Part shown: piece by piece, positions 25,942 through 40,443 of the stretch
How the letters are laid out: every line of letters begins with the position of its first letter
Position numbering within the stretch: position 1 is the first letter of the stretch
NCBI GenBank assembly: GCA_963732135.1
Contig: CAVSYC010000004.1
Span: 34,484 to 98,483, forward strand
DNA from: an uncultured Acidobacteriota bacterium
GTDB lineage: Bacteria; Acidobacteriota; Terriglobia; Acidiferrales; UBA7541
Length of the DNA: 64,000 bases
Direction: 5' to 3'
Made by a program: the position numbers and the translations under genes
Notes under the pieces: model-generated
Databases searched by the model: none
Told to the model about the DNA's origin: nothing
What the model saw: only the letters and a program-made list of their open reading frames with translations

Positions 25942-28900
25942 TTACGGCTCTGGCTCTGAAGGAGTCGGCGCGGGTGACGGTGCGCCCGCACCACCTGCCC
26001 CGCCACGCCCGGCGAATCTGGTCAACGACGTTCTCACGCGGTCACTCATCCGCCGCGGCGTCACCACGATCAACAATTCCGTGTCAGTCAACGAGGTATT
26101 CCGTTGCCCAAACGCGTAGCCTACGCCCGGCAAATTCGCCAGCCCCGGAATCCCGCTCAGCGATTTTGTTTCTTCGTTGTCCAGTAGCCCCGCGACGATC
26201 GAAGGTTCGCCTTCTTTCAGCCTGACCGTCTGCGAAACCGTGCGGTTGGTGATAATCGGAATTCCGTTTACGTTGTTCCCGGCCAGCGCTCGAATCTCGA
26301 ATTCCAACTGCAGCGTCACCTCATTTTCTTCATGCACCGTCGGAGTAGCTTTTACCTTAATTCCCAGATCTATATATTCCGATCCCGGATAGGGAGTCTG
26401 CTGCGCTCCGCCGATTCCCGATGCGAAACTCGAAGGGTCCAGCAGCACAGTTACAAAATTGTTGTTCCCTGAGCTGGCCGTCAGCACCGCGTCGGGCAAG
26501 CCGCTTGATGTCAGCAACGCGGTGATTAACGCCAACGGCCCCGGTGGCGTGCTCAATTCGATTCGCGATGAAAATTGTCCCGAGCCCAGACCTGCGTAAA
26601 CGCCCAGCGTGCCCGCTCCGTTATTGGTCACCGCGATGTCGCCAATTCCATCGTTTGTGAAGTCCGCAATCGCCACGCCCGCTGGAGTTGCCGCCGTTGC
26701 CAGCGGCGAGCCGGCAGCCGCGGTAAACACGCCAGTCGTGTCGTTCAGCAGCACCGTCACTGTATTCTCCGATTGGTTTACAACCGCGAAATCATCAATG
26801 TTATCGGCATTCAAATCGCCCACTGCAAAGGCCACCGGATCGGGGCCCGTCGCCACCGGCGACCCGCTCAATTCCGCAAACGTTCCGTTGAATGTGCTGT
26901 CACCCGTTGCCTGAAAAATTCCGATGTTCTGTGTCGCAGCATTTAACACGGCAATTTCCGGCCTGCCCGATTGGTCAAACGTGCCGGACAGCACCGCAAT
27001 CGGCCCCTTTTCCGCGCTTGGCAGTGCAAATGGCGACTTTGGAAACGGAGTGAACCCACCCTGCCCGTCGCCCTGAAAAACCGAAATGGTGTTGTCTCCC
27101 TGATTGATCACTGCAAAGTCCAGCAACCCATCGCCGTTGAAGTCCGCAATCACCACGCCGCTGGGCTTAGCCCCCACCGCGAACGGCGAACCCGTCGCCT
27201 CCGTGAATGTGCCATCAAAATTCTCGCTGCCCAGCAGCACGCTCACCGTATTCGATCCGCTGTTCGCGATCACCAGGTCCGCGGGCTGCACCAGGTGCGT
27301 CGCGTCTGTCAGACGAAAAATCTTGGAAGCGATGGCCGAAGGCAGCAGCTCGTTAGTGCCCAGTTTGATCGGCGATCCCGCGGTCGCGGTAAAATTTCCA
27401 TTATCGTTGTTAAATAAAATTGAGATGGAACCGTCGTTTTGATTCGCCACCGCCAGGTCCAGCAGCGCATCGTTGTTGAAATCCTGCGCCACAACCGCAA
27501 CCGGATTATTCCCAACCGCAAAATCCGTTCGCGCGAATACCGTCGAGGAAACAGCGCTCCCAACAGACGTTCCGCCCAGGCTCGTGGACAACAGCGACAA
27601 CGTCACCGGAAATCGCTGCCCCACAAAAAATGTTGCCGCTTTTCCATCCTGCGCCCGCATCAGGATTTGCCGACCGCTCTTCACCAGCGATAACCCGTTG
27701 GAAAATGTTGCGGACGCGCTCGGCATGGTCAGCAAAAACGTGCTTCTTCCTCCACCCACCGGCAAAACGTCCGTAGGGCTCGCTGTAATGCCATGTGCAG
27801 TAAACACCTGCGTCACCAATGAAAGTAAGTTCGTGATGTCGGTGGCCTGCTCCAATTGCGCAACGTCTGACGTGCTGAGCGGGAACGCTTGTACATTCGC
27901 CGGCGGCGTTATGCCCAGCGTTCTCGCCGCGTTTCGGTCCACTTCCAGCAGCTCGATATCCAGCATCACGTCCCGGCGCGCCTGCTCCAATTCCTTGATC
28001 AACTGTCCGGCCAGCGCCACTTTGTCCGCGCTTTCCCGCACCGTCAGGCTATGGTTGGCGATGTCCGTGGTAATGCGCGTCGAGTTCGTGATTTCGCGGA
28101 TCACCCGGACCATCTCTGTTATATCTTCCGGCGAAACGGTATTGTCCAGCCGGAATGTCTGCTCCAGTTCCTCCGCATACTCTTTGCGCTTGGCAATCGT
28201 GTCCTCGGCCACGAACATCAGCGTTGCATTCACCGCCCGGTAAAATGTTTTTGATTCCGCGCCCAGCAATTGCATCGCGGTATAGAAATCCACGTCGTTT
28301 ACTCGCAGCCTGATATTCTTCGACGCCAGGTCCGGGTCAAACGCCACCGTGATTCCGTACATCCTCGCCACTTGTTCGTACGCGCTCTTCGAATCTCCCC
28401 GCACATTCACGGCTTTTTTGCCCGGCTGCGGTTTCAGCGCCGACGATCCTTTTATCGCGTAATCTTCTTTGTCTCCGCGCGGCAGGTACTCCTTCATCTG
28501 CTTCATCTGCGCCAGCCGCTCCGCTACGATGGTATTTCCCGGATCAATCTTCAGCGCTTCATACATCAAGTCCGTTGCGCTTACGACGAACCCGTCCAGC
28601 GCATCAGTTTCCGCCTGGTCCACTAGTTTTTGCACCACCTCCGCGCGCCTTGCTGCGGCCCTGCGCACAATCCCGGCGTCTCCCGGAGCGCGCTTCACCG
28701 CCTGCTGGTATTCCGCCAAGGCCTCATCCATCCTGCCCGCGGCAAGAAATTTGTCGCCGCGATCAGCCAACTGCTCCGCCTGCTTGATATCTTCTTTCGA
28801 ATCCTTGGCGACTTGCGGTTTATTGGCAGCTTGGCCCAACGTTGCCGTTCCCGCGAGCAAGCAGACGGCGGCCACGCATACCGCACGGCCCAGCTGCCAT

Positions 28901-28956
28901 ACCGGGCTAGCTGCGGTCGACTGACTCCGCCCCTGTCGTAGATCTGCAATTTTCAT
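25942..28956 (-). CDS. Secretin (type II/III secretion system D-like) with N-terminal TPR and an internal 7x FG-GAP propeller
   Basis: Signal peptide, TPR helices, STN/N-domain (GITVAFDPDL), N3 (IANHSLTVRES), secretin strands DVMLDIELLEV, ATFFVGQRFPV, YIDLGIKVKATPTV, RTVSQTVRLKEGE, PGLANLPGVGYAFG, TELLIVVTPR; FG-GAP DFNxDGxxD repeats at about 26430-27535. Confidence 0.88.
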   Translation of the reverse strand: MKIADLRQGRSQSTAASPVWQLGRAVCVAAVCLLAGTATLGQAANKPQVAKDSKEDIKQAEQLADRGDKFLAAGRMDEALAEYQQAVKRAPGDAGIVRRAAARRAEVVQKLVDQAETDALDGFVVSATDLMYEALKIDPGNTIVAERLAQMKQMKEYLPRGDKEDYAIKGSSALKPQPGKKAVNVRGDSKSAYEQVARMYGITVAFDPDLASKNIRLRVNDVDFYTAMQLLGAESKTFYRAVNATLMFVAEDTIAKRKEYAEELEQTFRLDNTVSPEDITEMVRVIREITNSTRITTDIANHSLTVRESADKVALAGQLIKELEQARRDVMLDIELLEVDRNAARTLGITPPANVQAFPLSTSDVAQLEQATDITNLLSLVTQVFTAHGITASPTDVLPVGGGRSTFLLTMPSASATFSNGLSLVKSGRQILMRAQDGKAATFFVGQRFPVTLSLLSTSLGGTSVGSAVSSTVFARTDFAVGNNPVAVVAQDFNNDALLDLAVANQNDGSISILFNNDNGNFTATAGSPIKLGTNELLPSAIASKIFRLTDATHLVQPADLVIANSGSNTVSVLLGSENFDGTFTEATGSPFAVGAKPSGVVIADFNGDGLLDFAVINQGDNTISVFQGDGQGGFTPFPKSPFALPSAEKGPIAVLSGTFDQSGRPEIAVLNAATQNIGIFQATGDSTFNGTFAELSGSPVATGPDPVAFAVGDLNADNIDDFAVVNQSENTVTVLLNDTTGVFTAAAGSPLATAATPAGVAIADFTNDGIGDIAVTNNGAGTLGVYAGLGSGQFSSRIELSTPPGPLALITALLTSSGLPDAVLTASSGNNNFVTVLLDPSSFASGIGGAQQTPYPGSEYIDLGIKVKATPTVHEENEVTLQLEFEIRALAGNNVNGIPIITNRTVSQTVRLKEGEPSIVAGLLDNEETKSLSGIPGLANLPGVGYAFGQRNTSLTDTELLIVVTPRRMSDRVRTSLTRFAGRGGAGGAGAPSPAPTPSEPEP

Positions 28957-28983: not shown

Positions 28984-29004
28984 ATAGGACTAGATTAGTC
29001 CGAT
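28984..29004. promoter_or_regulatory. Imperfect palindrome, candidate operator in the divergent promoter
   Basis: ATAGGACTAG-A-TTAGTCCGAT (8/10 arm match; core GGACTA-gat-TAGTCC is perfect), abutting TTGACT. Confidence 0.4.
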
Positions 29005-29033
29005 TGACTTGCGAAGCCCCCAAGCGGTAAACT
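29004..29033 (+). promoter_or_regulatory. Sigma70-type promoter of the FTR1 operon
   Basis: TTGACT (29004-29009), 18-bp spacer, TAAACT (29028-29033). Confidence 0.55.
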
Positions 29034-29062
29034 TACAATTGTAGTTGCAACTCATTTACAAG
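29033..29062. promoter_or_regulatory. Candidate Fur-like operator
   Basis: AT-rich TTACAATTGTAGTTGCAACTCATTTACAAG containing palindromes TACAATTGTA and AGTTGCAACT; TGCAACT-C-ATTTACA matches 9 of 14 positions of the 7-1-7 Fur box TGATAAT-N-ATTATCA; lies at the predicted transcription start. Confidence 0.45.
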
Positions 29063-29114
29063 TAGACACCCGAACCTTAAGTCTCTACTACAACAACTTT
29101 CGACTGGATGTCTC

Positions 29115-30383
29115 GTGCTTTCTGCTTTCCTTATCTCGCTCCGTGAGGGCGTCGAAGCCGCCCTGGTTGTTGGCATCATACTAGTTTATCTTGCCCGCAC
29201 CGGGCGTTCGAATCTTACCCGCTTTGTCTGGGCCGGCGTCGCACTGGCTGGCGCTCTCAGCCTGGCCGTAGCCATTGCCCTCGAACGCTGGCAAATCAGC
29301 GAAGACGGCTTCGAAGGCCTGATGCTGCTGCTGGCCGCGGTCTTCGTCATTTCGATGATCCTTTGGATGAACCGCGTTGCGCGGCATCTGCGAAAAGATA
29401 TCGAGCAAAAAATTGAAAATTACGCGGTGCGCGCGGGTTCCGCCGCCGGATGGGGAATTTTTCTTTTCGTGTTTCTAATGGTGGTGCGCGAAGGCGCCGA
29501 GCTGGCGCTGATCTTGCGCGCCGTGCAGCTTTCCAGCGAAGGCATTCAGACCTGGATAGGCACGATTGCAGGCATCGCGGCCGCGATTGCCGTCGGACTA
29601 TTTTTCTTCAAAGGCACTTTGAAAATCCCGTTGCACCGTTTTTTTGCTGCGACGACGATTATTTTGTGGCTGGTTGCTGCCCAACTCGCGCTTACGGGTT
29701 TGCACGAGCTTAGCGAAGCGCAGTGGCTGCCTTCCGGCAAGCAGGAAATGGCGCTGATTGGGCCCATCGTTCGCAACGAAATTTTCTTCTTCGTATTTAT
29801 TTTTGGCGCGGCGGTGCTGTTGATTCTTCGCGAGTGGCTGACGGCCTCGCACGCCAAGCTCGAGGCTGCTGCCAACGATGCCGAGCGGCGCCTGCTTTCG
29901 GCACAGCAGCGCCGCCAGCGCAACTGGATGCTCGCCGCGGCTTCGGCTTGTCTCGCCGTCATTCTCGTTCTCACCGCCGATTTTATCTACGTCCGCGCCA
30001 ACTCCGCGCCGCCCTCCGCGCGCGCAATCGCGGCTTGCGGTTCTTCGCACGACGAACTCCGCGTGCCACTCAGCGAAGTGCAGGACGGCAACCTGCATCT
30101 TTTTAACGTTAAAACCGGCGATCAGTCTTTCCGCTTCCTGGTCATCAAGAAACCGCAAGGCTGGGGCGTAGCGCTCGATGCCTGCCGCATTTGCGGCGCG
30201 GAAGGCTATCGCCAGGACGGCCAAAATGTGATTTGCCGCCACTGCGGCTCCGCAATTTATGTCCCCACCATTGGCGAAGCCGGCGGCTGCAATCCCATAG
30301 GCGTACCCTTCCGCGTGGACGGCTCCGACATCGTGGTGAATGTCGCCGCCATCACCAAATCCTGGACGGAAGTGCCCAAATGA
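29115..30383 (+). CDS. FTR1-family iron permease fused to a C-terminal DUF2318 (Cys-rich, predicted Fe-S) domain
   Basis: Two REGxE motifs (REGVE, REGAE), TM helices, then LDACRICG...ICRHCG...GGCNP. GTG start. Confidence 0.88.
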   Translation: MLSAFLISLREGVEAALVVGIILVYLARTGRSNLTRFVWAGVALAGALSLAVAIALERWQISEDGFEGLMLLLAAVFVISMILWMNRVARHLRKDIEQKIENYAVRAGSAAGWGIFLFVFLMVVREGAELALILRAVQLSSEGIQTWIGTIAGIAAAIAVGLFFFKGTLKIPLHRFFAATTIILWLVAAQLALTGLHELSEAQWLPSGKQEMALIGPIVRNEIFFFVFIFGAAVLLILREWLTASHAKLEAAANDAERRLLSAQQRRQRNWMLAAASACLAVILVLTADFIYVRANSAPPSARAIAACGSSHDELRVPLSEVQDGNLHLFNVKTGDQSFRFLVIKKPQGWGVALDACRICGAEGYRQDGQNVICRHCGSAIYVPTIGEAGGCNPIGVPFRVDGSDIVVNVAAITKSWTEVPK

Positions 30384-30414
30384 AAGGGATGTCCACATTC
30401 CGTCAGAACAGCCC

Positions 30415-30468
30415 GTCATTCCGAGCGCAGCGACCGAGGGTTCCGACTTTGTCGGAAGGAATCTCTCT
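30415..30468 (+). repeat. REP-like element, family A, with an inserted hairpin
   Basis: GTCATTCCGAGCGCAGCGA-ccgaggg-TTCCGACtttGTCGGAA-GGAATCTCTC; the core matches 59481. Confidence 0.7.
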
Positions 30469-30482
30469 TCGATTCGTCGCTT

Positions 30483-30517
30483 TTCACGAGTCACTAGTCA
30501 CAAGTCACTAGTCACGA
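30483..30517. repeat. Heptamer tandem array (5 units)
   Basis: TTCACGA GTCACTA GTCACAA GTCACTA GTCACGA, ending 2 nt before ATG 30520. Confidence 0.7.
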
Positions 30518-30519
30518 AC

Positions 30520-31833
30520 ATGTTTCTCCGCCTCATCGCCGACAACTTCACACGCCGCCCGCGCCGCAAATTTCTCACCGCCGCGGCTCTGTCGCTAGGC
30601 ATGGCCGTAGCCACCGCCGCCCTCAGCGTCTCCCTCGACGTAGGCGACCGTCTCTCCGAAGAATTCAAATCCCTAGGCGCAAATCTGGTGGTCACTCCCG
30701 AAGCCGATTCGCTTCCCCTGGAAATCGGCGGCGTTGATTTCCGCCCGGCCAATTCCGGCGCCTATCTCCCCGAACCGGACCTCCCCAAAATCAAATCCGT
30801 CTTCTGGCACAACAACATCACCGCCTTCGCGCCCATCCTTGATTTACGGGTTCAAGCCCATCGGTATTCTTTGCCAGTTAGCACACCGATAGGGCCTGAG
30901 ACCAATGCCACACTGATTGGCACTTGGGCGAGCCACGCAGTTCACAATCCAGATGCGTCAAGCTTCATTACAGGAATCAAGAACGCGAATCCGTGGTGGC
31001 ATGTGGATGGCAAGTGGTTCGATGACAACGAGCGGGAATGCTTGATTGGCGCGGACTTTGCCAGAAGCCAAAAGCTGAAGACGAACGACACACTCTACAT
31101 ATACGCCGTAAGCAAGACGGTTCCCGTTATGGTTGAGCTGCGTATCGTTGGAATTCTAGACACTGGAGGCCCGGAGAATAATGCAATCGTCGCGCCGCTG
31201 ATGGTTGCTCAATGGCTCGCCGACAAGCCGGGCCAATACCGCAAACTCTACGTCTCCGCGTTGACTAAGCCTGAAGACGATTTTGCACGGCGCGACCCGC
31301 GAACCATGAAGCCAGACGAACTCGAACGCTGGTCCTGTTCACCGTACGTTTCTTCAATCGCGTATTCGATTAAACAGGTTCTGCCCGGTTCCGACGTCCG
31401 CGTAATCCGTCGCGTAGCCGATGGCGAAGGCAAAATTCTCACTCGCGTCCGTACGCTGCTCTGGCTGGTAACATTCGCATCTCTGCTGGCCGCCGCGCTA
31501 GCTGTAGGCGCATCCTCCGCCGCATCAGTCATCGAACGCCGCACCGAAATAGGCCTGATGAAAGCGCTAGGCGCAGCCTCCGGCACCGTCGGCTGGCTGC
31601 TTGCAGCCGAACAACTCCTCCTGGCATTCGTAGGCGGCTGCGCAGGCTACGCAGTGGGCTTGCTTCTAGCGCGTTTCCTCGGCACAAAAATTTTCGGTGT
31701 CCCGCCCGAACCCTCGCTGCTAGTCCTCGGCGTAATCCTCGTCCTCGCCGCCGCCGTAACCCTCCTCGGCAGCGCACTGCCGCTACGCCGCGCCGCCCAC
31801 TTTGATCCCGCGCCCATCCTCCGAGGCGAATGA
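30520..31833 (+). CDS. MacB/FtsX-type ABC permease (first of two)
   Basis: LGANLVVTP, periplasmic domain, YVSALTKPED, WSCSPY, ERRTEIGLMKALGA, C-terminal DPAPILRGE. Confidence 0.88.
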   Translation: MFLRLIADNFTRRPRRKFLTAAALSLGMAVATAALSVSLDVGDRLSEEFKSLGANLVVTPEADSLPLEIGGVDFRPANSGAYLPEPDLPKIKSVFWHNNITAFAPILDLRVQAHRYSLPVSTPIGPETNATLIGTWASHAVHNPDASSFITGIKNANPWWHVDGKWFDDNERECLIGADFARSQKLKTNDTLYIYAVSKTVPVMVELRIVGILDTGGPENNAIVAPLMVAQWLADKPGQYRKLYVSALTKPEDDFARRDPRTMKPDELERWSCSPYVSSIAYSIKQVLPGSDVRVIRRVADGEGKILTRVRTLLWLVTFASLLAAALAVGASSAASVIERRTEIGLMKALGAASGTVGWLLAAEQLLLAFVGGCAGYAVGLLLARFLGTKIFGVPPEPSLLVLGVILVLAAAVTLLGSALPLRRAAHFDPAPILRGE

Positions 31834-31865: not shown

Positions 31866-31938
31866 ACCTGTCTAAAGGCCGCCCGCTACAACAGCAATCA
31901 AGCCCTCGCTTTTCGTAGCGGCCGACCTTCAGGTCGGT
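31866..31938. repeat. Divergent pair of GTAG-type REP elements (family B)
   Basis: Minus-strand TGTAGCGGGCGGCCTTTAGACAGGT (31866-31890) and plus-strand GTAGCGGCCGACCTTCAGGTCGGT (31915-31938). Confidence 0.7.
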
Positions 31939-31965: not shown

Positions 31966-33123
31966 ATGCCTGAGCGCCGCTCCGCTAACCGCACCATGTT
32001 CTGGCGCGTTCTCCGCCGCTCAGTCTTCGCCGACCGCGGCCGCCTTTTCGTCGTTCTTCTCGCACTGGGAGCTGGCGCCGCTATCACCGCCGCTCTCCTG
32101 AATCTTCAAGTCGATGCCAAGCGCCGCATCAACACGGAATTTAGCATTTTCGGGCCAAGCGCCCTCATTGTCCCAGCCGGTACCTCGGCGACCTTCGCAG
32201 AAACGAACTTCGATGAGTTGGTTAAGGGCGGACCGCTTTCGAATTCACGGGCGACTCTCCTCTTGATTAGTGAGGTGGCCACCCAGACCAGCCCGCAACG
32301 ATCGATGCGTGCGGTCGTAGCCGGAACCCGCCCACTCCAACGGATCGACGAGCCAGGCAGGATTATTGCGCCGTCAAGTCAATCTGAACCGTACGATAGC
32401 CGTCAACTCTGCTTCGCCGGCGGGCGTCTTGCTTCCCGGATGCAAATAAAGGTCGGTGACGAAGTCGTCCTCCGGAGTAATGGGCGCGAGGAACCTTGCA
32501 AGATCGCTAGCATCTGGCTTCACGGCGATTCCACAGACGACCAAATTATGCCCAGTCTCGGAATTGCTCAAAGGCTTGCGGGTCTCCCCGGGCGCATCAG
32601 CTTTATCGATCTCAGTCTACGAGGGAGTCCTGAAGAGCAAGGCTCCTACATTTCTAGTCTGCAGCATCGCTTTTCAGGATTGGAGGTACGTCCCCTTCGG
32701 GAATTCAATCAAGCACAAGTAAACATTTATAACCGTATCTCTGGAATTTTGACGGCCACTGTCGCGGTCGTGCTGCTTCTCACCGCCCTCTGTGTAATGG
32801 CCGCCATGACCAACGTCGCCATGGAACGCAAGAACGACGTCGGCTTAATGAAAGCCATCGGCGGCTCAGTTCGCCGCGTCCTGCGTCTTTTCCTCGCCGA
32901 GGCCGCGTTGCTCGGACTAGCAGGCGGATTGATCGGCGCAGCAATCGGCATCGCAGTCTCCATCGGCCTCGGCAAAGCCGTCTTCGGCGTAGCCGCGCAG
33001 CCTCGCCTCATCGTGTATCCTATTTCTGTGGCCCTCACGGTGGTTGTAGCGATTCTCGCGGCTTATCCGCTGCGCCGCCTAGTGCACATCCGTCCCGCAT
33101 CCGTCTTCCGAGGCGAAGAATGA
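31966..33123 (+). CDS. MacB/FtsX-type ABC permease (second of two)
   Basis: TM1 LLALGAGAAITAALLNL, ERKNDVGLMKAIGG, C-terminal [10 protein letters not shown]; overlaps the next ATG. Confidence 0.87.
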   Translation: MPERRSANRTMFWRVLRRSVFADRGRLFVVLLALGAGAAITAALLNLQVDAKRRINTEFSIFGPSALIVPAGTSATFAETNFDELVKGGPLSNSRATLLLISEVATQTSPQRSMRAVVAGTRPLQRIDEPGRIIAPSSQSEPYDSRQLCFAGGRLASRMQIKVGDEVVLRSNGREEPCKIASIWLHGDSTDDQIMPSLGIAQRLAGLPGRISFIDLSLRGSPEEQGSYISSLQHRFSGLEVRPLREFNQAQVNIYNRISGILTATVAVVLLLTALCVMAAMTNVAMERKNDVGLMKAIGGSVRRVLRLFLAEAALLGLAGGLIGAAIGIAVSIGLGKAVFGVAAQPRLIVYPISVALTVVVAILAAYPLRRLVHIRPASVFRGEE

Positions 33124-34370
33124 CCGCGCAAACACAAGTCGTGCCTAAGCTCGCCACGCAAGTCGTCATCGATGCGCTGGTCAAACAATACGGCGCGCTG
33201 CGCGCACTGAATGGCGTCTCCTTCGACATCGCACCCGGCGAATGGGTCGCGCTGATGGGTCCGTCGGGCTCCGGCAAGACCACGCTCATCAATATTCTCG
33301 GCGGCCTCGACACCCTCACCTCCGGCCGCGTCGTAGTGGACGGCGTCGATCTCGCAAAGCTCAACGAAAACGCCCTGGTACGTTACCGCGCAGAAAAAAT
33401 CGGCTTCGTCTTCCAGCAATTTCACCTCGTTCCGTATCTCAATGCAGTAGAAAACGTGATGCTGGCGCAATATTTCCATTCCGTCACTGACGAAAAACAA
33501 GCCGAGGAAGCGCTGAAGCATGTTGGCCTCGGCGAACGCCTTACCCATCTTCCATCGCAGCTCTCCGGCGGCGAACAGCAACGCGTAGCCATCGCCCGCG
33601 CCCTCATCAATCAGCCCAAATTAATTCTCGCCGACGAACCCACCGGCAATCTCGACGAAGCCAACGAACAAATCGTCATCAATCTTTTCCGCGATCTGCA
33701 CAAATCCGGCCACACCATCCTGATGGTCACGCACGATCCGGACATCGCGCGCCAGGCCGACCGCCGCATCGAGCTCGCGCACGGCCACTTGTCTTTTGAC
33801 ACAGCGCAGCACGGCCCCAATCATCCAATGGCTTGCCCGCTCGCCAATACCGCCGATTGCTGCACGCCAGTCACAGCCGACGACGATATCCGCGTGGATC
33901 ACCTGCTCGAACAAATCTGGATTTGCGGCGAAGAAGGCAAGCCCGCGCAGCCGGAACTGTTGCGCGTCGAAGGACCAGCCGGCCAGTTGCCAATTGTCGG
34001 CGCCGAACCGGCAACCCGCCTGCTCGCGCGCATGGCCGATTCGCGCCTAATCGAATTCAACGGAAACAAAAATGGAAACGCCACGAGCGTGCCAATCGAT
34101 TCAGCGAATGGCGCGGAAGTTCACCTGACCGAATCCGGCTCACGCCGCGCTCGCGACGTAGTCCGCCGCCACCGCCTCGCCGAACGCTTGTTCACGGACA
34201 CTTTCGCCATCGAAGATGCCGAAGCGCACGTGCAAGCCTGCCGCTTCGAACACATCATCACGCCCGAACTAGACCAGCGCATCTGCTCTTTCCTCGGCCA
34301 TCCCAAAACCTGTCCGCACGGGAATCCGATTCCACCGGGAGCATGTTGCGAGATAAACCCGAAAGACTGA
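33120..34370 (+). CDS. ABC ATPase fused to a C-terminal DtxR/IdeR-like metal-binding and dimerisation domain
   Basis: [36 protein letters not shown]; then RHRLAERLF...[10 protein letters not shown]...[13 protein letters not shown]. Confidence 0.88.
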
Positions 34371-34389: not shown

Positions 34390-34782
34390 ATGCCCATTCC
34401 CATCGACCAGCGCCGCAAGCCCGCCAGCGTGAAAATTCACGTAAGCAGCGGCGCGGGTGTGGACATCGTCTGGGCCGACGGCCACGCCAGCCATTTTGAT
34501 TTTGCCTATCTGCGCGAAAATTGTCCCTGCGCCACCTGCAACGATGAACGCATCAAAAAGGAATCCCTCGGCGAAGCTTCCCCCGCCTTCGCTTCTTCTC
34601 CCGCGTTGCCCATGTTCAAGCCCAAGGCCCGCGCGGAATCCGCAACGCCAATAGGCCAGTACGCGATACAACTTTCTTTTTCCGATGGCCACTCCACTGG
34701 CATTTACTCCTACGACCATCTCCGTTCCATCTGTCCCTGCCAGGAATGCACCGCACAGCGCACGCAATCCATACGCGCCTAA
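34390..34782 (+). CDS. DUF971 (GBBH-like N-terminal) domain protein
   Basis: IVWADGH, YLRENCPCATC, GQYAIQLSFSDGHSTGIYSYDHL. Confidence 0.88.
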   Translation: MPIPIDQRRKPASVKIHVSSGAGVDIVWADGHASHFDFAYLRENCPCATCNDERIKKESLGEASPAFASSPALPMFKPKARAESATPIGQYAIQLSFSDGHSTGIYSYDHLRSICPCQECTAQRTQSIRA

Positions 34783-34904: not shown

Positions 34905-35762
34905 ATGGCTTGCGATCCTCAAGAATTAAGACACGTACCGCTTTTTGCGCTACTTGACGACGAGGAAGCCTGCGTCCTCGCTTCGCAGGTGGAAAAAAGA
35001 ACATTCACGCCGCGCCAGCGCATTTACAAAATCGGTGATACCGATGGAAAGGCGTACGTGATGTTCTCCGGCAAAGTGCGCGTAACCACCGTGGATGAGG
35101 ATCATCAGGAAGTGGTCATCGATGAACCGAGCCACGGCGAATTTTTCGGCTTCGCTTCGATGCTCGAGCAAACTCCGCACCAGACCAACGCCACCGCCGT
35201 TGAAGAAACGATTTGTATCGAGGTGGACCGTACCGACATCGCTGTGCTGCTCGAACGCAAGCCGCTGGCAGGAATGGACATGCTCACCGTGCTCGGCAAA
35301 CAGTTTCACGCCTCGCAGCTACTCGTGCGCCTTCGCGCCACACGCAATGCCAACGAAGTCATCGAGAAAGACGCAACCTTCGGAGAACGCATTGCCGACC
35401 ACGTGGCCGGCTTTGGCGGCTCGTGGACTTTCATTATTACTTTTCTCTCGTCGCTGCTGGCGTATTCCGCTCTCAGTATTTACATGGGCAAAAATTCCTG
35501 GGATCCCTATCCCTTTATTTTACTAAATCTTTTTCTGTCCATGCTTGCCGCCATTCAGGCCCCGGTGATCATGATGAGTCAGAATCGCCAGGACACCAAA
35601 GACCGCCTGCGTGGCGAACTCGATTACGACGTCAACCGCCGCGCCGAATCGGAAATCCAGGGCCTGGCCCGCAAGCTAAACGCTCTCGACGACAAGCTTT
35701 CCGACATCCACGGCCATCTTCACGGCGCCTCTTCCGACCCTTCGGGCGGCCCTGTTCGTTGA
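34905..35762 (+). CDS. cNMP-binding-domain plus DUF1003 membrane protein
   Basis: VPLFALLD...GEFFG cNMP fold; GERIADHVAGFGGSWTF, WDPYPFILLNLFLSMLAAIQAPVIMMSQNRQ (DUF1003). Confidence 0.88.
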   Translation: MACDPQELRHVPLFALLDDEEACVLASQVEKRTFTPRQRIYKIGDTDGKAYVMFSGKVRVTTVDEDHQEVVIDEPSHGEFFGFASMLEQTPHQTNATAVEETICIEVDRTDIAVLLERKPLAGMDMLTVLGKQFHASQLLVRLRATRNANEVIEKDATFGERIADHVAGFGGSWTFIITFLSSLLAYSALSIYMGKNSWDPYPFILLNLFLSMLAAIQAPVIMMSQNRQDTKDRLRGELDYDVNRRAESEIQGLARKLNALDDKLSDIHGHLHGASSDPSGGPVR

Positions 35763-35957
35763 CACCTGTGGCATTGCATTCCGTTTTTCGTAGTGTCGGC
35801 CCTTAGCGCGACCTCTTTCTTTTTCTTTCTTTTTTCTTGTTTTCCAGCCCCTCTAAAGCCCGTATTACAAGTTAGCGTCCTCCGCAAATATTTTTCATCC
35901 GCGCAATTCCGTGCGCGATAGCATTTCCCCAGTCCCGTCCCCCGGAAAGGTTCACCC

Positions 35958-36287
35958 ATGCCCGATGAACGCCGCCGATCTCCACGAATTCCATTTGCCG
36001 CGAGCGCCGAAATCATTGACGAAGCAGAAAATACCCGCAGCGCATCGCAAGTTTGCGATTTAAGCCTGCACGGCTGTTTTGTTCAACTCTCGAATCCGTT
36101 TCCGGAAGGCACTCCGGTCACCATCGAAATTTATAAAGACGAGGACTTCGTTGAAACGCCGGCAACCGTCGCCTATTTCATGCCCAAGCGCGGAATGGGA
36201 CTGACCTTCAACGGAATGGAGCCTCAGTTCGCCGCAGTCCTGAAAAAATGGCTCAGCCAACCGAAAATTACCGCGCGCCACGCTTGA
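35958..36287 (+). CDS. Single-domain PilZ protein
   Basis: ERRRSPR (RxxxR) and DLSLHG (DxSxxG) c-di-GMP motifs; GMGLTF. Confidence 0.88.
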   Translation: MPDERRRSPRIPFAASAEIIDEAENTRSASQVCDLSLHGCFVQLSNPFPEGTPVTIEIYKDEDFVETPATVAYFMPKRGMGLTFNGMEPQFAAVLKKWLSQPKITARHA

Positions 36288-36494: not shown

Positions 36495-38774
36495 ATGAGT
36501 ACCACTTCCAACAACACCGTGGCGAATGCTCGCCGCGGCAACGGCATTCCGCGCGTCATCGTTGCCACCACCGCGCTCCTCACCTTCATTTCTTTCTGGC
36601 GGGCTGCTGCAATCGTTCTGAATGATCTGGCATCGTCGGCGTATTACGCGGGCGGTGAAGCGGAAGGCTACATCGGAAAAACCGCGCCCTGGTTCATCCT
36701 GGCCATCATGCTCTTTTCCTACGCCGTGCGCGCGGTGTACGTGGAAAGCTGCAGCATGTTCGTGCGCGGGGGAGTCTACCGCGCCGTCAAACAATCGCTC
36801 GGCGGCACGCTGGCTAAATTCAGCGTCTCTGCCCTGATGTTTGACTACATTTTAACCGGCCCGATCAGCGGCGTGGCAGCGGGCCAATACGTCGGCGGAC
36901 TCCTCAGCGAGCTTCTGCCGTACGCGCACATAACGACTGGACCGCTTTCGCCTCACTCCATCAACTTCATCGCCTCGTGTTTTGCCATCATAGTCACCGT
37001 TTATTTCTGGTGGGAAAACACCAAGGGCATTCCCGAATCCAGCGAAAAAGCCCTGCACATCATGAAGCTTGTCACCGTGATGGTGGTGATCCTAATCGGC
37101 TGGTGCGTTTACACCATTGCCCTGCGCCACTCGGCGCTTCCGCCCTTTCCTTATCCCCGCAATCTTCATCTCACCGCGGGCTCCCTCGGTTGGCTGGCGC
37201 ATAGCTCTTTGCCACACATGTTTGGCATCGTCGCCATATTCATCGCGCTGGGCCACTCCGTACTGGCCATGAGCGGAGAGGAATCCCTGGCACAGGTCTA
37301 TCGCGAAATCGAAAGTCCCAAACTGGTCAACCTGAAAAAGGCTGGACTGGTGATTTTCGTTTACAGCATGGTCTTCACTTCGCTGGTTTCCTTCTTCGCG
37401 GTGATGATCATTCCGGACGACGTGCGGCAAAGTTTCCTGGAAAATCTTATTGGCGGATTGGCCATGAACCTCGCCGGGCCATTCCTGGTTCGGCTGATCT
37501 TTCACGCCTTCGTGGTTGTGGTGGGCGCGGTAATCCTTGCGGGCGCGGTCAACACCGCAATCGTCGGTTCGAATGGCGTACTGAACCGTGTTTCCGAGGA
37601 TGGCGTGCTCAGCGATTGGTTCCGCCAGCCGCATCCGCGTTTTGGCACCAGCTATCGCATCATCAACATCATCGTTATTTTGCAGATTCTCACCATTTTT
37701 ATCAGCCGCGGCGATGTGACGTTCCTGGCGAACCTGTACGCGTTTGGCGTGATCTGGAGTTTTGCCATGAACGGCCTGGCAGTGCTGGTATTGCGCTACA
37801 CGAATCCGGGCCAGCGCGAGTTTCAGGTTCCGCTTAATTTTACAATCCGCGGAAAACAAGTTCCGCTCGGACTGGGAATAATCACGCTCACGTTGTTTCT
37901 GATCGCGTTCGTCAACTTGTTTACCAAGCCCGTGGCCACCATGGCTGGCGGCGCGTTTTCCGTGCTGCTGTATATCGTCTTTACAATTTCCGAAAAGCGA
38001 GCGCGGCACGCTGGCGTAGCGCATGTGGAAATGGACCAGTTCAACCTGGAGCTGGAAGGCGAATTGACTCCGGAAGCGGTCGGCGCAAGGCCCGGCAACA
38101 TCCTCGTCCCCATCAGCAACCATTTCAATATGTATCATCTGGGTAATGTTCTGGATCGCGTGAAACCAGGGAGGCGCGACGTTGTTGTCCTGCACGTGCG
38201 CATGTTGCGCCGCTCCGCCTCTGGCGAGCAGGAATTGGACGCGGATCAACTCTTCGGCAGCATCGAGCAGCATCTTTTTTCGCAAGCGTTGAGCATGGCG
38301 GAAAAACGTGGCAAATCCATTCGGCTTGCAGTGGTCGCCGCAAACGACCTCTGGGACGGTATTCTACGCGCCGGAAACAGCCTGCAATCGTCAACGATTG
38401 TGGTCGGCACTTCCAGCCACTGGCAGAGCGAAGAGCAAGCGCGCCAGATCGGCGAAGCGTGGGAGAGGCTTCCCGACCCCAAGCCACAATTCAATTTGGA
38501 AGTGCATTTGCCGAACGGCGACAAGGTCTACAAAGTTCTTGGCCCGCACGCGCCGAACCTGACCGCCAACGAAGTGAATTTGCTGCACCGCCTCTGGTTG
38601 CGATTCAGCGATCAGGTTGCACCGGAAGAATTGCACCACCACGATGTGGTGCACTTCAGCCTGGAAGAATTGCAGCGCGAAATTGACGAAGGCCGTGAAG
38701 AGCAGGTAGTCGAACGCCTGCGCGCGCATCTGATCGCTAACCGTAAAAAGAAAAACCCAGGCAGCAGCTTATAG
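36495..38774 (+). CDS. APC-superfamily transporter, KimA/KUP-like, with a cytoplasmic USP-like C-terminal domain
   Basis: About 12 TM helices; DLASSAYY, GGVYRAVKQSLG, FDYILT, SGEES motifs; C-terminal ILVPISN...VVVLHV...IVVG alpha/beta domain. Confidence 0.8.
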   Translation: MSTTSNNTVANARRGNGIPRVIVATTALLTFISFWRAAAIVLNDLASSAYYAGGEAEGYIGKTAPWFILAIMLFSYAVRAVYVESCSMFVRGGVYRAVKQSLGGTLAKFSVSALMFDYILTGPISGVAAGQYVGGLLSELLPYAHITTGPLSPHSINFIASCFAIIVTVYFWWENTKGIPESSEKALHIMKLVTVMVVILIGWCVYTIALRHSALPPFPYPRNLHLTAGSLGWLAHSSLPHMFGIVAIFIALGHSVLAMSGEESLAQVYREIESPKLVNLKKAGLVIFVYSMVFTSLVSFFAVMIIPDDVRQSFLENLIGGLAMNLAGPFLVRLIFHAFVVVVGAVILAGAVNTAIVGSNGVLNRVSEDGVLSDWFRQPHPRFGTSYRIINIIVILQILTIFISRGDVTFLANLYAFGVIWSFAMNGLAVLVLRYTNPGQREFQVPLNFTIRGKQVPLGLGIITLTLFLIAFVNLFTKPVATMAGGAFSVLLYIVFTISEKRARHAGVAHVEMDQFNLELEGELTPEAVGARPGNILVPISNHFNMYHLGNVLDRVKPGRRDVVVLHVRMLRRSASGEQELDADQLFGSIEQHLFSQALSMAEKRGKSIRLAVVAANDLWDGILRAGNSLQSSTIVVGTSSHWQSEEQARQIGEAWERLPDPKPQFNLEVHLPNGDKVYKVLGPHAPNLTANEVNLLHRLWLRFSDQVAPEELHHHDVVHFSLEELQREIDEGREEQVVERLRAHLIANRKKKNPGSSL

Positions 38775-38787
38775 CATCAGTCTTCGA

Positions 38788-38818
38788 GGGTGCCCCAGGT
38801 GCCGGGTTTACACCTGGG
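38788..38818. repeat. GGGTG-type REP-like hairpin between convergent genes
   Basis: GGGTGC-CCCAGGTG-ccgggttta-CACCTGGG (8-bp stem). Confidence 0.5.
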
Positions 38819-38898
38819 TCTTGAATTTTTTCCTTGCATTATCATTTTGTTCAGTCGCTGCAGCAGTTCCGACGATACACAGATGCCGAAGAGCAAGT

Positions 38899-39330
38899 CT
38901 AGACAGCCGACGTGCAATGCCCGCACTTTTTTGCCGCAATGGGAATCGCCATCGCGCACTGCGGACAGTCTTTGGTGCTGGGCGCGGCGGCGGGCGCCGG
39001 CTTCACCAGCCAGCGATTGACGACGCGCAGCAAAAGAAAAATAGCAAACGCGACGATCAAAAAATTCACGATGGTATTCAGGAATAAGCCATAGTTCAGC
39101 GTTGCCGCTCCATGCGCCTTGGCGTCGGGGATAGTCGCATAATGCGTGTCGCCTAAATTTATGAACAGGTTCGAAAAATCCACGTGCCCCAGTGCGCGGC
39201 CGATGGGCGGCATGATGATGTCATCCACCAGCGACGATACGATTTTTCCGAAGGCTGCGCCGATAATGATTCCGACTGCCATATCGAGAACATTGCCGCG
39301 CATTGCAAATTCTTTGAATTCCTTGAGCAT
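38899..39330 (-). CDS. mscL: Large-conductance mechanosensitive channel MscL
   Basis: [35 protein letters not shown]...[17 protein letters not shown]; C-terminal CPQC...CGHC zinc-ribbon-like tail. Confidence 0.96.
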
Positions 39331-39388
39331 CGCAGATCTCCTTGCAGATGTAGTGTCAGAGCAGCGCGCCTGGCGGCGCGAGGAGCAT

Positions 39389-39751
39389 TCAGTTTCGCCG
39401 AAACACTAACACGGAACCTACCAGGCCGCGCAACAGAAGAAGCAGGCCGGCGACGGAGAGCAGCGGACCCACCCAGGGAAATGGGACGCGGGAAATCGCC
39501 AGCATCACCACGCCGAGCAAAAGTAACGAAAGTCCACGAGTGAAATTTTCCGAGCGCGACCAGTATTTTCCCGGCTGATACAGTGCCCGCGCTCCCCATA
39601 GAATCAGCGCGATACTCAGCAGCGACCAGCCGATTCGGCGCCGGTCAAAGAAGATGTGATGCGTCGCCCCAAGCCAAATAACCAGCCCGCCCAGCAGAAT
39701 AAAAATAATCTCAATGGAGAGCCGCAAAGATTTGTCAGGCGTAAGCAGCAT
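39389..39751 (-). CDS. Small hypothetical membrane protein (4 TM)
   Basis: Four hydrophobic segments; directly upstream of and co-oriented with mscL. Confidence 0.7.
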
Positions 39752-39768
39752 GTGAGAAGTTTTCTTTC

Positions 39769-39848
39769 GTCATTCCGAGCCCAGCGAGGAATCTCTCTTC
39801 GTCTTGGATTGGCGCGCCGGAGAGATTCCTCGCTTCGCCCGCAATGAC
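39769..39848. repeat. REPIN-like inverted doublet, family A
   Basis: GTCATTCCGAGCCCAGCGAGGAATCTCTC ... GAGAGATTCCTCGCTTCGCCCGCAATGAC forms a long imperfect hairpin. Confidence 0.8.
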
Positions 39849-39915
39849 GCCACACCAGCGGCATTCCATACCGGGCGAAAACGTGTTTTCAAATTCCCAC
39901 ATTGCGAGACAAGTT

Positions 39916-40443
39916 TTAAGACACGCGCTCGATTTTTACGTGGTTGATGGTGACCGGCGTATTGGGGCGGTCGTTGCGATCGCGCGGCACACCAGAAATC
40001 TTGTTGGCGATATCCTGACCCTCCACCACTTCGCCAAAAACAGTGTGGCGATTATCGAGGTGCGGCGTCGGCGCAACCGTGATGAAGAATTGGCTGCCGT
40101 TGGTATTGGGCCCGGAATTGGCCATCGAGAGTTTTCCCGCCTTGGAATGTTTCAACTCAGGATGAAATTCGTCGGCGAATTTGTATCCCGGGCCGCCCAT
40201 TCCGGAGCCGTGTGGGCATCCGCCCTGAATCATGAAATTGGGAATGACACGATGGAAAATCAAACCGTCGTAGAAAGGGCGTTTTTCTTTTTTGCCGGTT
40301 TTTTCGTTGGTGAATTCCTTGGTGCCTTCCGCAAGGCCGACAAAGTTTTCCACGGTCTTAGGCGCTTCCTTCTCGAATAATTTAATTACCATGTTGCCTT
40401 GCGAAGTTTCAAAAGTGGCGTACGTGCCGGTCGGACGAGTCAT
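39916..40443 (-). CDS. Cyclophilin-type peptidyl-prolyl cis-trans isomerase
   Basis: APKTVENFVGLA, FYDGLIFHRVIPNFMIQGG, LSMANSGPNTNGSQFFIT, HTVFGEV. Confidence 0.95.
   Translation of the reverse strand: MTRPTGTYATFETSQGNMVIKLFEKEAPKTVENFVGLAEGTKEFTNEKTGKKEKRPFYDGLIFHRVIPNFMIQGGCPHGSGMGGPGYKFADEFHPELKHSKAGKLSMANSGPNTNGSQFFITVAPTPHLDNRHTVFGEVVEGQDIANKISGVPRDRNDRPNTPVTINHVKIERVS

Follow-up and report, generated by a model that had tools for sequence, protein, structure and literature searches.

A DtxR-type metal-sensor module fused to the ABC ATPase of an acidobacterial iron-uptake operon: a possible repressor-derived brake on the transporter

Introduction

Control of bacterial iron uptake is understood almost wholly as transcriptional, exerted by Fur and by regulators of the DtxR/IdeR type, and to our knowledge fast protein-level control of iron importers is barely documented. 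Here we analyze a stretch of 64,000 nucleotides from an uncultured Acidobacteriota bacterium (GenBank assembly GCA_963732135.1, contig CAVSYC010000004.1, positions 34,484 to 98,483 of the forward strand; this whole stretch is called the window, and all coordinates below refer to it). In it, a single open reading frame (ORF) of 416 amino acids (aa), at 33120-34370 on the + strand, encodes an ABC ATPase, a Cys/His linker and a two-domain module that resembles the metal-dependent repressors DtxR and IdeR. The module retains the metal ligands of these repressors and has lost their DNA-reading residues, and the gene lies in a predicted iron-uptake operon. We put at about even the chance that the module derives from a repressor and now serves as a cytoplasmic, Fe(II)-gated brake, which would act by trans-inhibition on the transporter and not on DNA.

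The architecture combines two known kinds of protein, the DtxR-family sensors and the C-terminal regulatory domains on ABC ATPases. The module shares with DtxR of Corynebacterium diphtheriae and with IdeR of Mycobacterium tuberculosis and Saccharopolyspora erythraea the two-domain fold, the PF02742 domain, the spacing and identity of six metal ligands, and a ligand in helix 1 at the position of Met10, which is His in the module and Met in DtxR. Unlike these repressors, it is fused C-terminally to an ABC ATPase, gives no signal of the N-terminal family PF01325, lacks the SH3-like domain, and has no IdeR box nearby in the window. It differs from them further in that the residues equivalent to Ser37, Pro39, Thr40, Gln43 and Arg60 of IdeR are all replaced, and in its additional Cys and His residues (CPHG in place of SP[FY]G, a terminal CC pair, and the linker cysteines).

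The second kind of protein is represented by MetNI, with the C2 domain of MetN, and by ModBC, with the C-terminal domain of ModC. In both, the nucleotide-binding domain is followed by an additional domain that binds ligand and dimerises, placed so as to sense how much of the imported nutrient the cytoplasm contains and to halt ATP turnover, and these C-terminal domains give rise to trans-inhibition (PMC10710835); an analogous arrangement is what we propose here. The module is nonetheless not a member of either type, as its fold is that of DtxR and not the ACT-like C2 or TOBE fold. The linker of the fusion is also long and predicted with low confidence, and the motor is of the MacB/FtsX type (type VII) and stands beside an FTR1 permease, unlike a classical binding-protein-dependent importer.

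The closest described counterpart of the operon is the FetMP-FetABCDEF cluster of Campylobacter jejuni (Cj1658-1665), which likewise holds an FTR1 permease, the DUF2318 motif, two FtsX-type permeases and a MacB-like ATPase in one operon (PMC6083913, PMC10783030), and in which fetA, fetB, fetC and fetD are each required for growth under iron limitation (PMC10783030). In the acidobacterial operon, by contrast, the FetM-like and DUF2318 parts are fused into one protein, a DUF971 gene follows, and P19 (FetP) and FetE/F are missing from the operon and the flanking genes scanned; C. jejuni FetD has no counterpart of the DtxR-like module found on the acidobacterial ATPase. A precedent by analogy for a winged helix repurposed to transporter control is FeoC, a small winged-helix protein with a Cys-bound Fe-S cluster that acts post-translationally on FeoB (PMC10710835). 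Unlike the module, FeoC has no sequence or domain kinship to DtxR, and it works by protection from proteolysis.

Neither an ABC ATPase-DtxR fusion nor the related group of DtxR-FeoA proteins without a helix-turn-helix (HTH), discussed below, is described in the searchable literature, subscription journals being mostly outside the search; within that scope we agree with the original prediction for this locus, made from the sequence alone, which knew of no characterised example. Automated annotation has already met the architecture, as one Joint Genome Institute protein name reads [quoted passage not shown].

A complete ATPase followed by a conserved metal sensor

The ATPase part (33120-33800, + strand; residues 1-227) is MacB/LolD/FtsE-like, and FetD-like, as judged by Pfam, NCBIfam and its motifs. 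It had been described as a complete MacB-type ATPase, and this description holds: a Pfam scan of the fusion protein places ABC_tran on residues 30-175 with an E-value of 7.7e-37, and all catalytic motifs are present and intact, namely Walker A GPSGSGKT (47), the signature LSGGE (148), Walker B LILADEP (168) and the H-loop THD (204). The top NCBIfam families are LolD, MacB and FtsE; because every score lies under the equivalog cut-off, the domain is none of these three exactly. Its sequence is 79-95% identical among the Acidoferrum-type loci introduced below and about 60% identical in the two other lineages that carry the fusion. The extra domain lies C-terminal to the nucleotide-binding domain and comprises residues 228-416.

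Residues 228-253 (33801-33878, + strand) form the linker, in which H231, H235, C239, C247 and C248 are invariant in an alignment of 77 homologous sequences; it is absent from other fusion variants, and its confidence in AlphaFold2 (AF2) models is below 50. The dimerisation and metal-binding domain of DtxR type was delimited by Pfam and alignment to residues 338-405 (34131-34334, + strand). Pfam recognises it as Fe_dep_repr_C (PF02742; residues 337-405, E-value 3.1e-28), and a phmmer search of the PDB matches IdeR at 1.9e-18. H351, E355, H370, C374, E377 and H378 follow one another at intervals of +4, +15, +4, +3 and +1, as they do in DtxR, and align to its H79, E83, H98, C102, E105 and H106. 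Five of these six ligands (H351, E355, C374, E377 and H378) are invariant among the 77 homologues, and H370 is present in 90% of them.

A further ligand position is conserved outside this domain. D260 and H261 in helix 1 are invariant in the same alignment, and H261 aligns with Met10 of DtxR, the sole primary-site ligand that comes from the DNA-binding domain (PMC10317159). The identity of the metal that would be bound is suggested by C374, since a Cys at the C102 position biases the family to Fe(II) over Mn(II) (PMC10317159). The metal-binding domain also holds the subfamily-specific residues C389, C398 and H400, and the C-terminal tail (34335-34370, + strand, with the stop codon) contributes the pair C409-C410, near-invariant in the 77-sequence alignment and followed by six residues. 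Altogether, residues 228-416 contain eight invariant or near-invariant cysteines.

The original prediction had named the ligand spacing, the Cys/His linker and several motifs, all of which are where it put them (linker motif 231-240, DCC 246-248, TCPHGNPIP 397-405, CC 409-410), and it had proposed a search with the profiles of both DtxR domains; the one for Fe_dep_repr_C matches, the one for Fe_dep_repress (PF01325) does not. Judged by its sequence, the sensor part appears intact.

A winged helix without its DNA-reading residues

The N-terminal domain of the module, residues 254-337 (33879-34130, + strand), is a degenerate winged helix according to AF2, Foldseek, alignment, column entropy and the lack of an HTH profile match. 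AF2 models residues 225-416 with a predicted local distance difference test score (pLDDT) of 80.5, and with 83-95 for helix 1, helix 3 and the strands of the wing. In this model helix 1 spans residues 252-271 and holds D260 and H261; helix 2 is reduced to a remnant of one turn at residues 278-280, after which comes a Pro/Gly loop of low confidence (281-297); helix 3 (298-307) and a two-stranded wing with a 16-residue insertion (311-336) follow, and the dimerisation helices occupy residues 338-391. Foldseek aligns the module with two-domain IdeR and DtxR structures over 147-159 columns at template-modelling scores of 0.77-0.81, normalised to the target.

At the level of sequence, neither PF01325 nor any other HTH family matches the fusion protein even at E<=10; four canonical controls match PF01325 at 1e-11 to 1e-18. 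The earlier description of an eroded HTH therefore holds for the sequence; as to the fold, a winged helix is still predicted. Its placing of the recognition helix at residues 276-297 needs correction: that segment comprises helix 2, the turn and the start of helix 3, and the true equivalent is 298-310. Both the retained winged-helix fold and the retained ligand equivalent to Met10 had escaped notice.

The residues by which the repressors read DNA are gone. IdeR makes its base and minor-groove contacts with Ser37, Pro39, Thr40, Gln43 and Arg60 (PMC10317159), and these align to V293, A295, E296, T299 and A332 of the fusion protein, with V, E, E, A and G as the majority residues in the family, such that none of the five contact residues is retained in the module. 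The HTH-equivalent segment is slightly net acidic. It is also the least conserved region of the whole protein, with an entropy of 1.1-1.3 bits, as against about 0.3 bits for helix 1, helix 4, the metal domain and the ATPase; a repressor of a conserved operator would be expected to show the opposite pattern of variability.

Occurrence and variation of the fusion

We scanned GTDB, with one genome per species, using the C-terminal 196 residues, which gave more than 470 loci, and analyzed the best 80. Nearly all of these belong to Acidobacteriota of the Candidatus (Ca.) Acidoferrum/Acidiferrum type. An uninterrupted ORF with both Walker A and the DtxR part is present at 77 of the 80 Acidoferrum-type loci; two of the three exceptions end at contig ends, and one is broken. 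The loci share one gene order: a divergent secretin, then FTR1-FtrD, FtsX, FtsX, ABC-DtxR and DUF971. The same fusion, in the same FTR1-FtrD / FtsX / FtsX / ABC-DtxR operon, recurs in Polarisedimenticolia (gp22), with a module about 38% identical, and in Ca. Angelobacter/Terriglobales (gp1), at 155 loci and with a module about 43% identical. The fusion is old and widespread in Acidobacteriota, and its recurrence each time in the same transporter operon argues that it is under selection.

Read-level evidence was taken from low-depth Logan contigs of soil metagenomes, and one contig of 399 nt from a public soil run crosses the ATPase/linker junction with a single mismatch. One metatranscriptome contig matches the ATPase part, which is too thin for any statement on expression. 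An assembly, frameshift or gene-calling artefact that joins two genes had been raised as a concern from the start, and many database entries do resemble stand-alone "DtxR" proteins of 110-260 aa. These entries, considered as free genes and rejected, start within the ATPase or sit on contigs of only 1-2 kb, and are for that reason truncations. Against 77 of 80 independent metagenome-assembled loci with one continuous ORF, two more lineages with the same fusion at about 40% identity, and the soil contig across the junction, the artefact is refuted, and the expectation that relatives would carry the fusion is borne out in three acidobacterial lineages.

Separate expression of the module was considered and set aside on two grounds. 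A promoter-like site at 33796-33824 is a single consensus match at background frequency, and no start codon within the gene is conserved, M237 being Leu in 61 of the 77 sequences. An apparent DtxR-DUF971 fusion (P0064) has a garbled middle that is best explained by frameshifts joining neighbouring genes, and it was not counted.

The lineages differ in their accessory segments. Angelobacter-lineage fusions (P0124-type proteins; loci L108-L156) are without the Cys/His linker, and their wing carries an insertion of about 40 residues rich in His and Cys (…HTHRQILNRCHDALRP…HHGD…). With a linker in one lineage and a wing insertion in another, each lineage has therefore added its own metal-ligand-rich segment. 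An Acidobacteriaceae locus (L157, contig CBDIBU010000005.1) has an FTR1-FtrD / FtsX / ABC operon without the module, and is a natural comparison for the module's contribution.

The operon and its promoter

The first gene of the operon (29115-30383, + strand) encodes an FTR1 iron permease fused to a Cys-rich FtrD-like/DUF2318 domain, that is, FetM-like and FetA-like parts in one protein. Pfam matches FTR1 at 1.6e-41 and PF10080 at 6.3e-25, and the protein contains two REXXE motifs and a CxxC-x13-CxxC-x14-C motif. The pattern CxxC-x13-CxxC-x14/15-C is the DUF2318 motif, described for C. jejuni FetA (PMC6083913). This gene is syntenic in all three fusion lineages.

Two FtsX-type permease genes come next. 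The first (30340-31833, + strand) is FetB-like and has a MacB periplasmic core domain (MacB_PCD 6.1e-11, FtsX 2.8e-17); its listed ORF shares 44 nt with the end of the FTR1-FtrD gene, and the first 60 or so residues lack conservation, since alignment to relatives begins only at about residue 46-61. Translation probably starts at the Met of MFLRLIADNF near 30520. The second (31966-33123, + strand) is FetC-like (FtsX 2.7e-12), and its stop codon overlaps the start of the ATPase gene (ATGA). In the 132-nt gap between the two permease genes, a terminator-like GC-rich hairpin with a T-run (31921-31938, + strand) may be an internal attenuator or an RNA-stability element.

Past the fusion gene by 19 nt stands a gene for a DUF971 (GBBH-like_N) protein with two CPCxxC motifs (34390-34782, + strand). 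It follows directly at 78 of the 80 Acidoferrum-type loci, is absent from the Angelobacter loci, and is probably the last gene of the operon in the Acidoferrum-type lineage. DUF971 has been tied to Fe-S cluster maintenance through mutant fitness data (bioRxiv 10.1101/072470). Neither P19 (FetP) nor thioredoxins (FetE/F) occur in the operon or in ten neighbouring genes that were scanned in the interval of 16.5 to 43.6 kb. By its gene content, the operon is a Fet-type FTR1/DUF2318/FtsX iron-uptake system, a relative of fetMP-fetABCDEF, a context that the original prediction had missed.

Upstream of the first gene lies a sigma-70-like promoter (29004-29033, + strand; TTGACT, an 18-nt spacer, TAAACT) that agrees with the consensus at 9 of 12 positions, with both hexamers in conserved alignment columns. 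Two palindromes flank it. The first, P1, is a perfect 6-3-6 repeat, GGACTAGATTAGTCC (28987-29001, + strand), which ends 2 nt upstream of the -35 hexamer and is unique in the window at 0 mismatches. Of 67 aligned Acidoferrum-type promoters, 46-48 (about 70%) contain the k-mers of its downstream arm (GGTCCGGTTG/GTCCGGTTGAC); others, such as L011-L015, do not.

The second palindrome, P2, has the sequence AGTTGCAACTCATTTACAAGT (10-1-10; 29043-29063, + strand), lies just downstream of the -10 hexamer and is a Fur-box-like candidate operator. It is the only such site in the window, with 0 expected by chance; its family consensus is GTAGTTGCAAATCATTTACAACTGGAG, and by count its core agrees with the 7-1-7 Fur consensus TGATAAT-N-ATTATCA at 10 of 14 positions. 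Promoters of the Angelobacter lineage carry TGAAATTGAAATTCATTTTCAA (site form TTGAAATTCATTTTCAA), which agrees with the E. coli Fur box at 14 of 19 positions, and one of them (L148) has TTGCAAATCATTTGCAA. Helix 3 in this lineage reads LAMERMQEMGL and differs from that of the Acidoferrum type. Because the two lineages share the operator core while helix 3 differs, P2 is better assigned to a separate Fur-type repressor. The window holds no site within 3 mismatches of the IdeR/DtxR box, and no fur gene or second dtxR lies within its 64 kb. In Polarisedimenticolia, the 250 nt upstream of FTR1 resemble coding sequence.

Relatives of the module beside feoB

To place the module we compared it by phmmer with 1.84 billion cluster representatives and examined the 145 nearest. 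The motif CPHG...CC occurs in about 117 of these 145, and 109 of the 117 lack the canonical helix-1 motif; they typically have instead a helix 1 of the EE.LE.LW type, then a variable, often acidic segment that replaces the HTH. The few members with a canonical HTH have CPHG, and mostly miss the CC. The free-standing members consist of Fe_dep_repr_C and FeoA: in a sample of 20, PF01325 was found in none and FeoA in 18.

These proteins are the closest free-standing relatives of the module over its whole length (38-44% identity), and share with it the EE.LE.LW-type helix 1, the variable, acidic HTH remnant, CPHG...CC and the ligand set. Like the fusion, they are linked to an iron transporter, in their case by gene neighbourhood. 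A genome scan with an alignment of eight FeoA-type relatives yielded 80 loci from many bacterial and archaeal phyla, and 59 of them have feoB in the same orientation at a distance of no more than 600 nt; at 7 of the other 21 the upstream sequence is too short to judge. They differ from the module in being separate proteins with a C-terminal FeoA (SH3-like) domain, in having FeoB and not an ABC motor as their partner, and in their hosts, which are mostly anaerobes of many bacterial and archaeal phyla. At 56 of the 80 loci the gene is immediately downstream of feoB, with a median gap of about 250 nt, and several of these gaps contain a short ORF rich in Cys.

In addition, 22 of the loci carry a Fur homologue and 6 a canonical, HTH-bearing DtxR. 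From this co-occurrence, together with the proximity to feoB, the module comes from a subfamily habitually tied to iron transporters, beside genuine regulators. The module accordingly belongs to a much larger HTH-less DtxR subfamily, which the original prediction did not see, and the "DtxR/MntR-family regulators" beside feoB (L188-L267, L102-L106) are probably transporter accessories misannotated as repressors. A bolder proposal, which we hold with considerable doubt, is that of a large unrecognised class of DtxR-derived proteins that have given up DNA binding (CPHG...CC, degenerate winged helix) and serve as post-translational gatekeepers of iron import. In Acidobacteriota they would be covalently joined to a Fet-type ABC motor, and in hundreds of anaerobic bacterial and archaeal lineages they would dock to FeoB by way of a FeoA domain. 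Through the added Cys4/His site, such proteins might respond to an Fe-S or thiol signal as well as to Fe(II).

A possible iron-gated brake and its rivals

The Fe(II)-gated brake could work as follows. Transcription of the operon would be set by a separate Fur-type repressor at P2. Rising cytoplasmic Fe(II) would fill two sites of a sensor dimer that hangs below the two ATPase domains, an ancillary site made of H351, E355 and H370 and a primary site made of C374, E377, H378 and, from helix 1, H261. In IdeR and DtxR, metal orders the primary site, swings the N-domains in a caliper-like motion and reshapes helix 1 in its first turn (PMC10317159). It is exactly at this start of helix 1 that the ATPase is joined, via the Cys/His linker of about 30 residues, and because of this attachment a metal-driven movement would restrain the closing and opening of the nucleotide-binding domains and stop ATP turnover. 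That a cytoplasmic substrate arrests the ATPase we infer from the conservation of the ligands and from the behaviour of DtxR and IdeR (PMC10317159). The outcome would be a fast feedback brake on iron import, acting in addition to Fur-type transcriptional control and analogous to the way in which methionine trans-inhibits MetNI and molybdate trans-inhibits ModBC. The hosts fit such a need: few bacteria of acid soils, a habitat with wide swings in Fe(II) levels, are as abundant as Ca. Acidoferrum and Ca. Angelobacter (PMC7980381), and abundant iron-cycling bacteria of this habitat may well profit from fast protection against Fe(II) surges.

Several observations weigh against this brake. The full-length AF2 model has a pLDDT of 64 and a predicted TM-score (pTM) of 0.45, with a linker below 50 and no confident contact between sensor and ATPase, and a long flexible tether, as the model suggests, would be a weaker mechanical coupler than the short connections of MetN and ModC. 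The SH3-like third domain, donor of two ancillary-site ligands in DtxR and IdeR, is absent. Because IdeR without its SH3-like domain dimerises without metal (PMC10317159), dimerisation of the module may be constitutive. Related operons, those of L157 and of C. jejuni with its FetD, do without the module. The sign of the regulation is a guess, as the task of FetBCD-type motors in iron uptake has yet to be established (PMC10783030). P1 does not resemble a Fur box and is assigned to no regulator. The retained winged-helix fold may, finally, still bind DNA in a different register, given the invariant R304 and M305 and, in 99% of the 77 sequences, a basic residue at position 300.

These last points lead to the second of the two alternatives that the original prediction had left side by side, a transporter-tethered or bifunctional transcription regulator, whose diverged winged helix would bind, for example, P1 or P2 and couple iron flux to repression of the operon. 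The prediction of the whole two-domain IdeR/DtxR fold, helix 3 and β-wing included, is in keeping with it, as are the invariant and basic residues of helix 3, the two conserved palindromes around the promoter, and P1 (GGACYARAYTRGTCC), for which no other binder is obvious. We consider it unlikely all the same, given that none of the five DNA-contact residues of IdeR is kept (PMC10317159), that no HTH profile matches, and that a Pro/Gly-rich loop of low confidence stands in place of helix 2. No part of the protein varies more than the HTH-equivalent, in contrast to the conserved palindromes, and P2 is Fur-like and common to a lineage with a different helix 3; some promoters of fusion-bearing operons have no P1. 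In the wider subfamily, moreover, the helix-3 equivalent is acidic and variable in length, and the loci often hold a Fur or a canonical DtxR of their own. The lost contacts, the variable HTH, the shared Fur-like operator and the HTH-less relatives favour a metal-gated switch on the transporter over a tethered regulator, neither of the two being proven.

Two other explanations assign the module a different task. It may sense or handle something other than free Fe(II), with its Cys motif holding an Fe-S cluster or a redox-active thiol/zinc site that signals Fe-S or redox status in the manner of FeoC, or with the module taking up imported iron and passing it to the DUF971 protein. The candidate motif would consist of C389, C398, H400, C409 and C410 together with linker residues C239, C247 and C248. 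In favour are the eight strongly conserved cysteines of residues 228-416; CPHG...CC, in about 117 of the 145 nearest representatives, goes along with the absence of an HTH; DUF971, the protein with two CPCxxC motifs encoded directly downstream at 78 of 80 loci, is tied to Fe-S maintenance; and FeoC is a winged-helix protein whose Fe-S cluster goes with an action on FeoB (PMC10710835). The full conservation of the classical DtxR ligand set, however, argues for mononuclear metal binding as the continuing core function. The two other fusion lineages and some closer variants do not have the linker cysteines, and the Angelobacter operons have no DUF971 gene; we judge this explanation improbable. 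Less probable still is a structural add-on, in which the DtxR dimerisation domain would hold two ATPase subunits as a constitutive dimer, with the metal as a structural cofactor and no part in regulation. MacB-type motors do act as dimers, yet helix 1 with its Met10-equivalent and the rest of the N-domain are kept under selection though needless for dimerisation, all six sensing ligands are conserved, and homologous operons function without such a domain (L157; C. jejuni FetD, PMC10783030).

If the brake on the transporter is real, it would be a natural case of a classical iron repressor that has become a built-in allosteric switch of a transporter, and direct iron feedback on an ABC motor would become testable. 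It would also give a handle on the job of the FetBCD-type motor, which is relevant to Campylobacter and other pathogens, and would lead to the re-annotation of many "DtxR/MntR-family regulators" beside feoB as probable transporter accessories. Metal-gated protein switches could, moreover, be designed on the model of the DtxR movement coupled to an ATPase.

Neighbouring genes

Divergent from the operon, a gene at 25942-28956 (- strand) encodes an outer-membrane secretin of 1004 aa, in which Pfam finds Secretin and Secretin_N domains and inserted FG-GAP repeats. It is syntenic in the Acidoferrum-type loci and absent from the Angelobacter loci, and may be an outer-membrane partner of the iron system. 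On the other side, 34905-36287 (+ strand) encodes a membrane protein with cNMP-binding and DUF1003 domains and a PilZ-domain protein, both of which are syntenic only in the closest relatives. The + strand genes lie in C-rich sequence of negative skew; the GC skew flips sign at about 38000-40000, and its cumulative minimum lies near 36-40 kb, where the genes turn from the + to the - strand.

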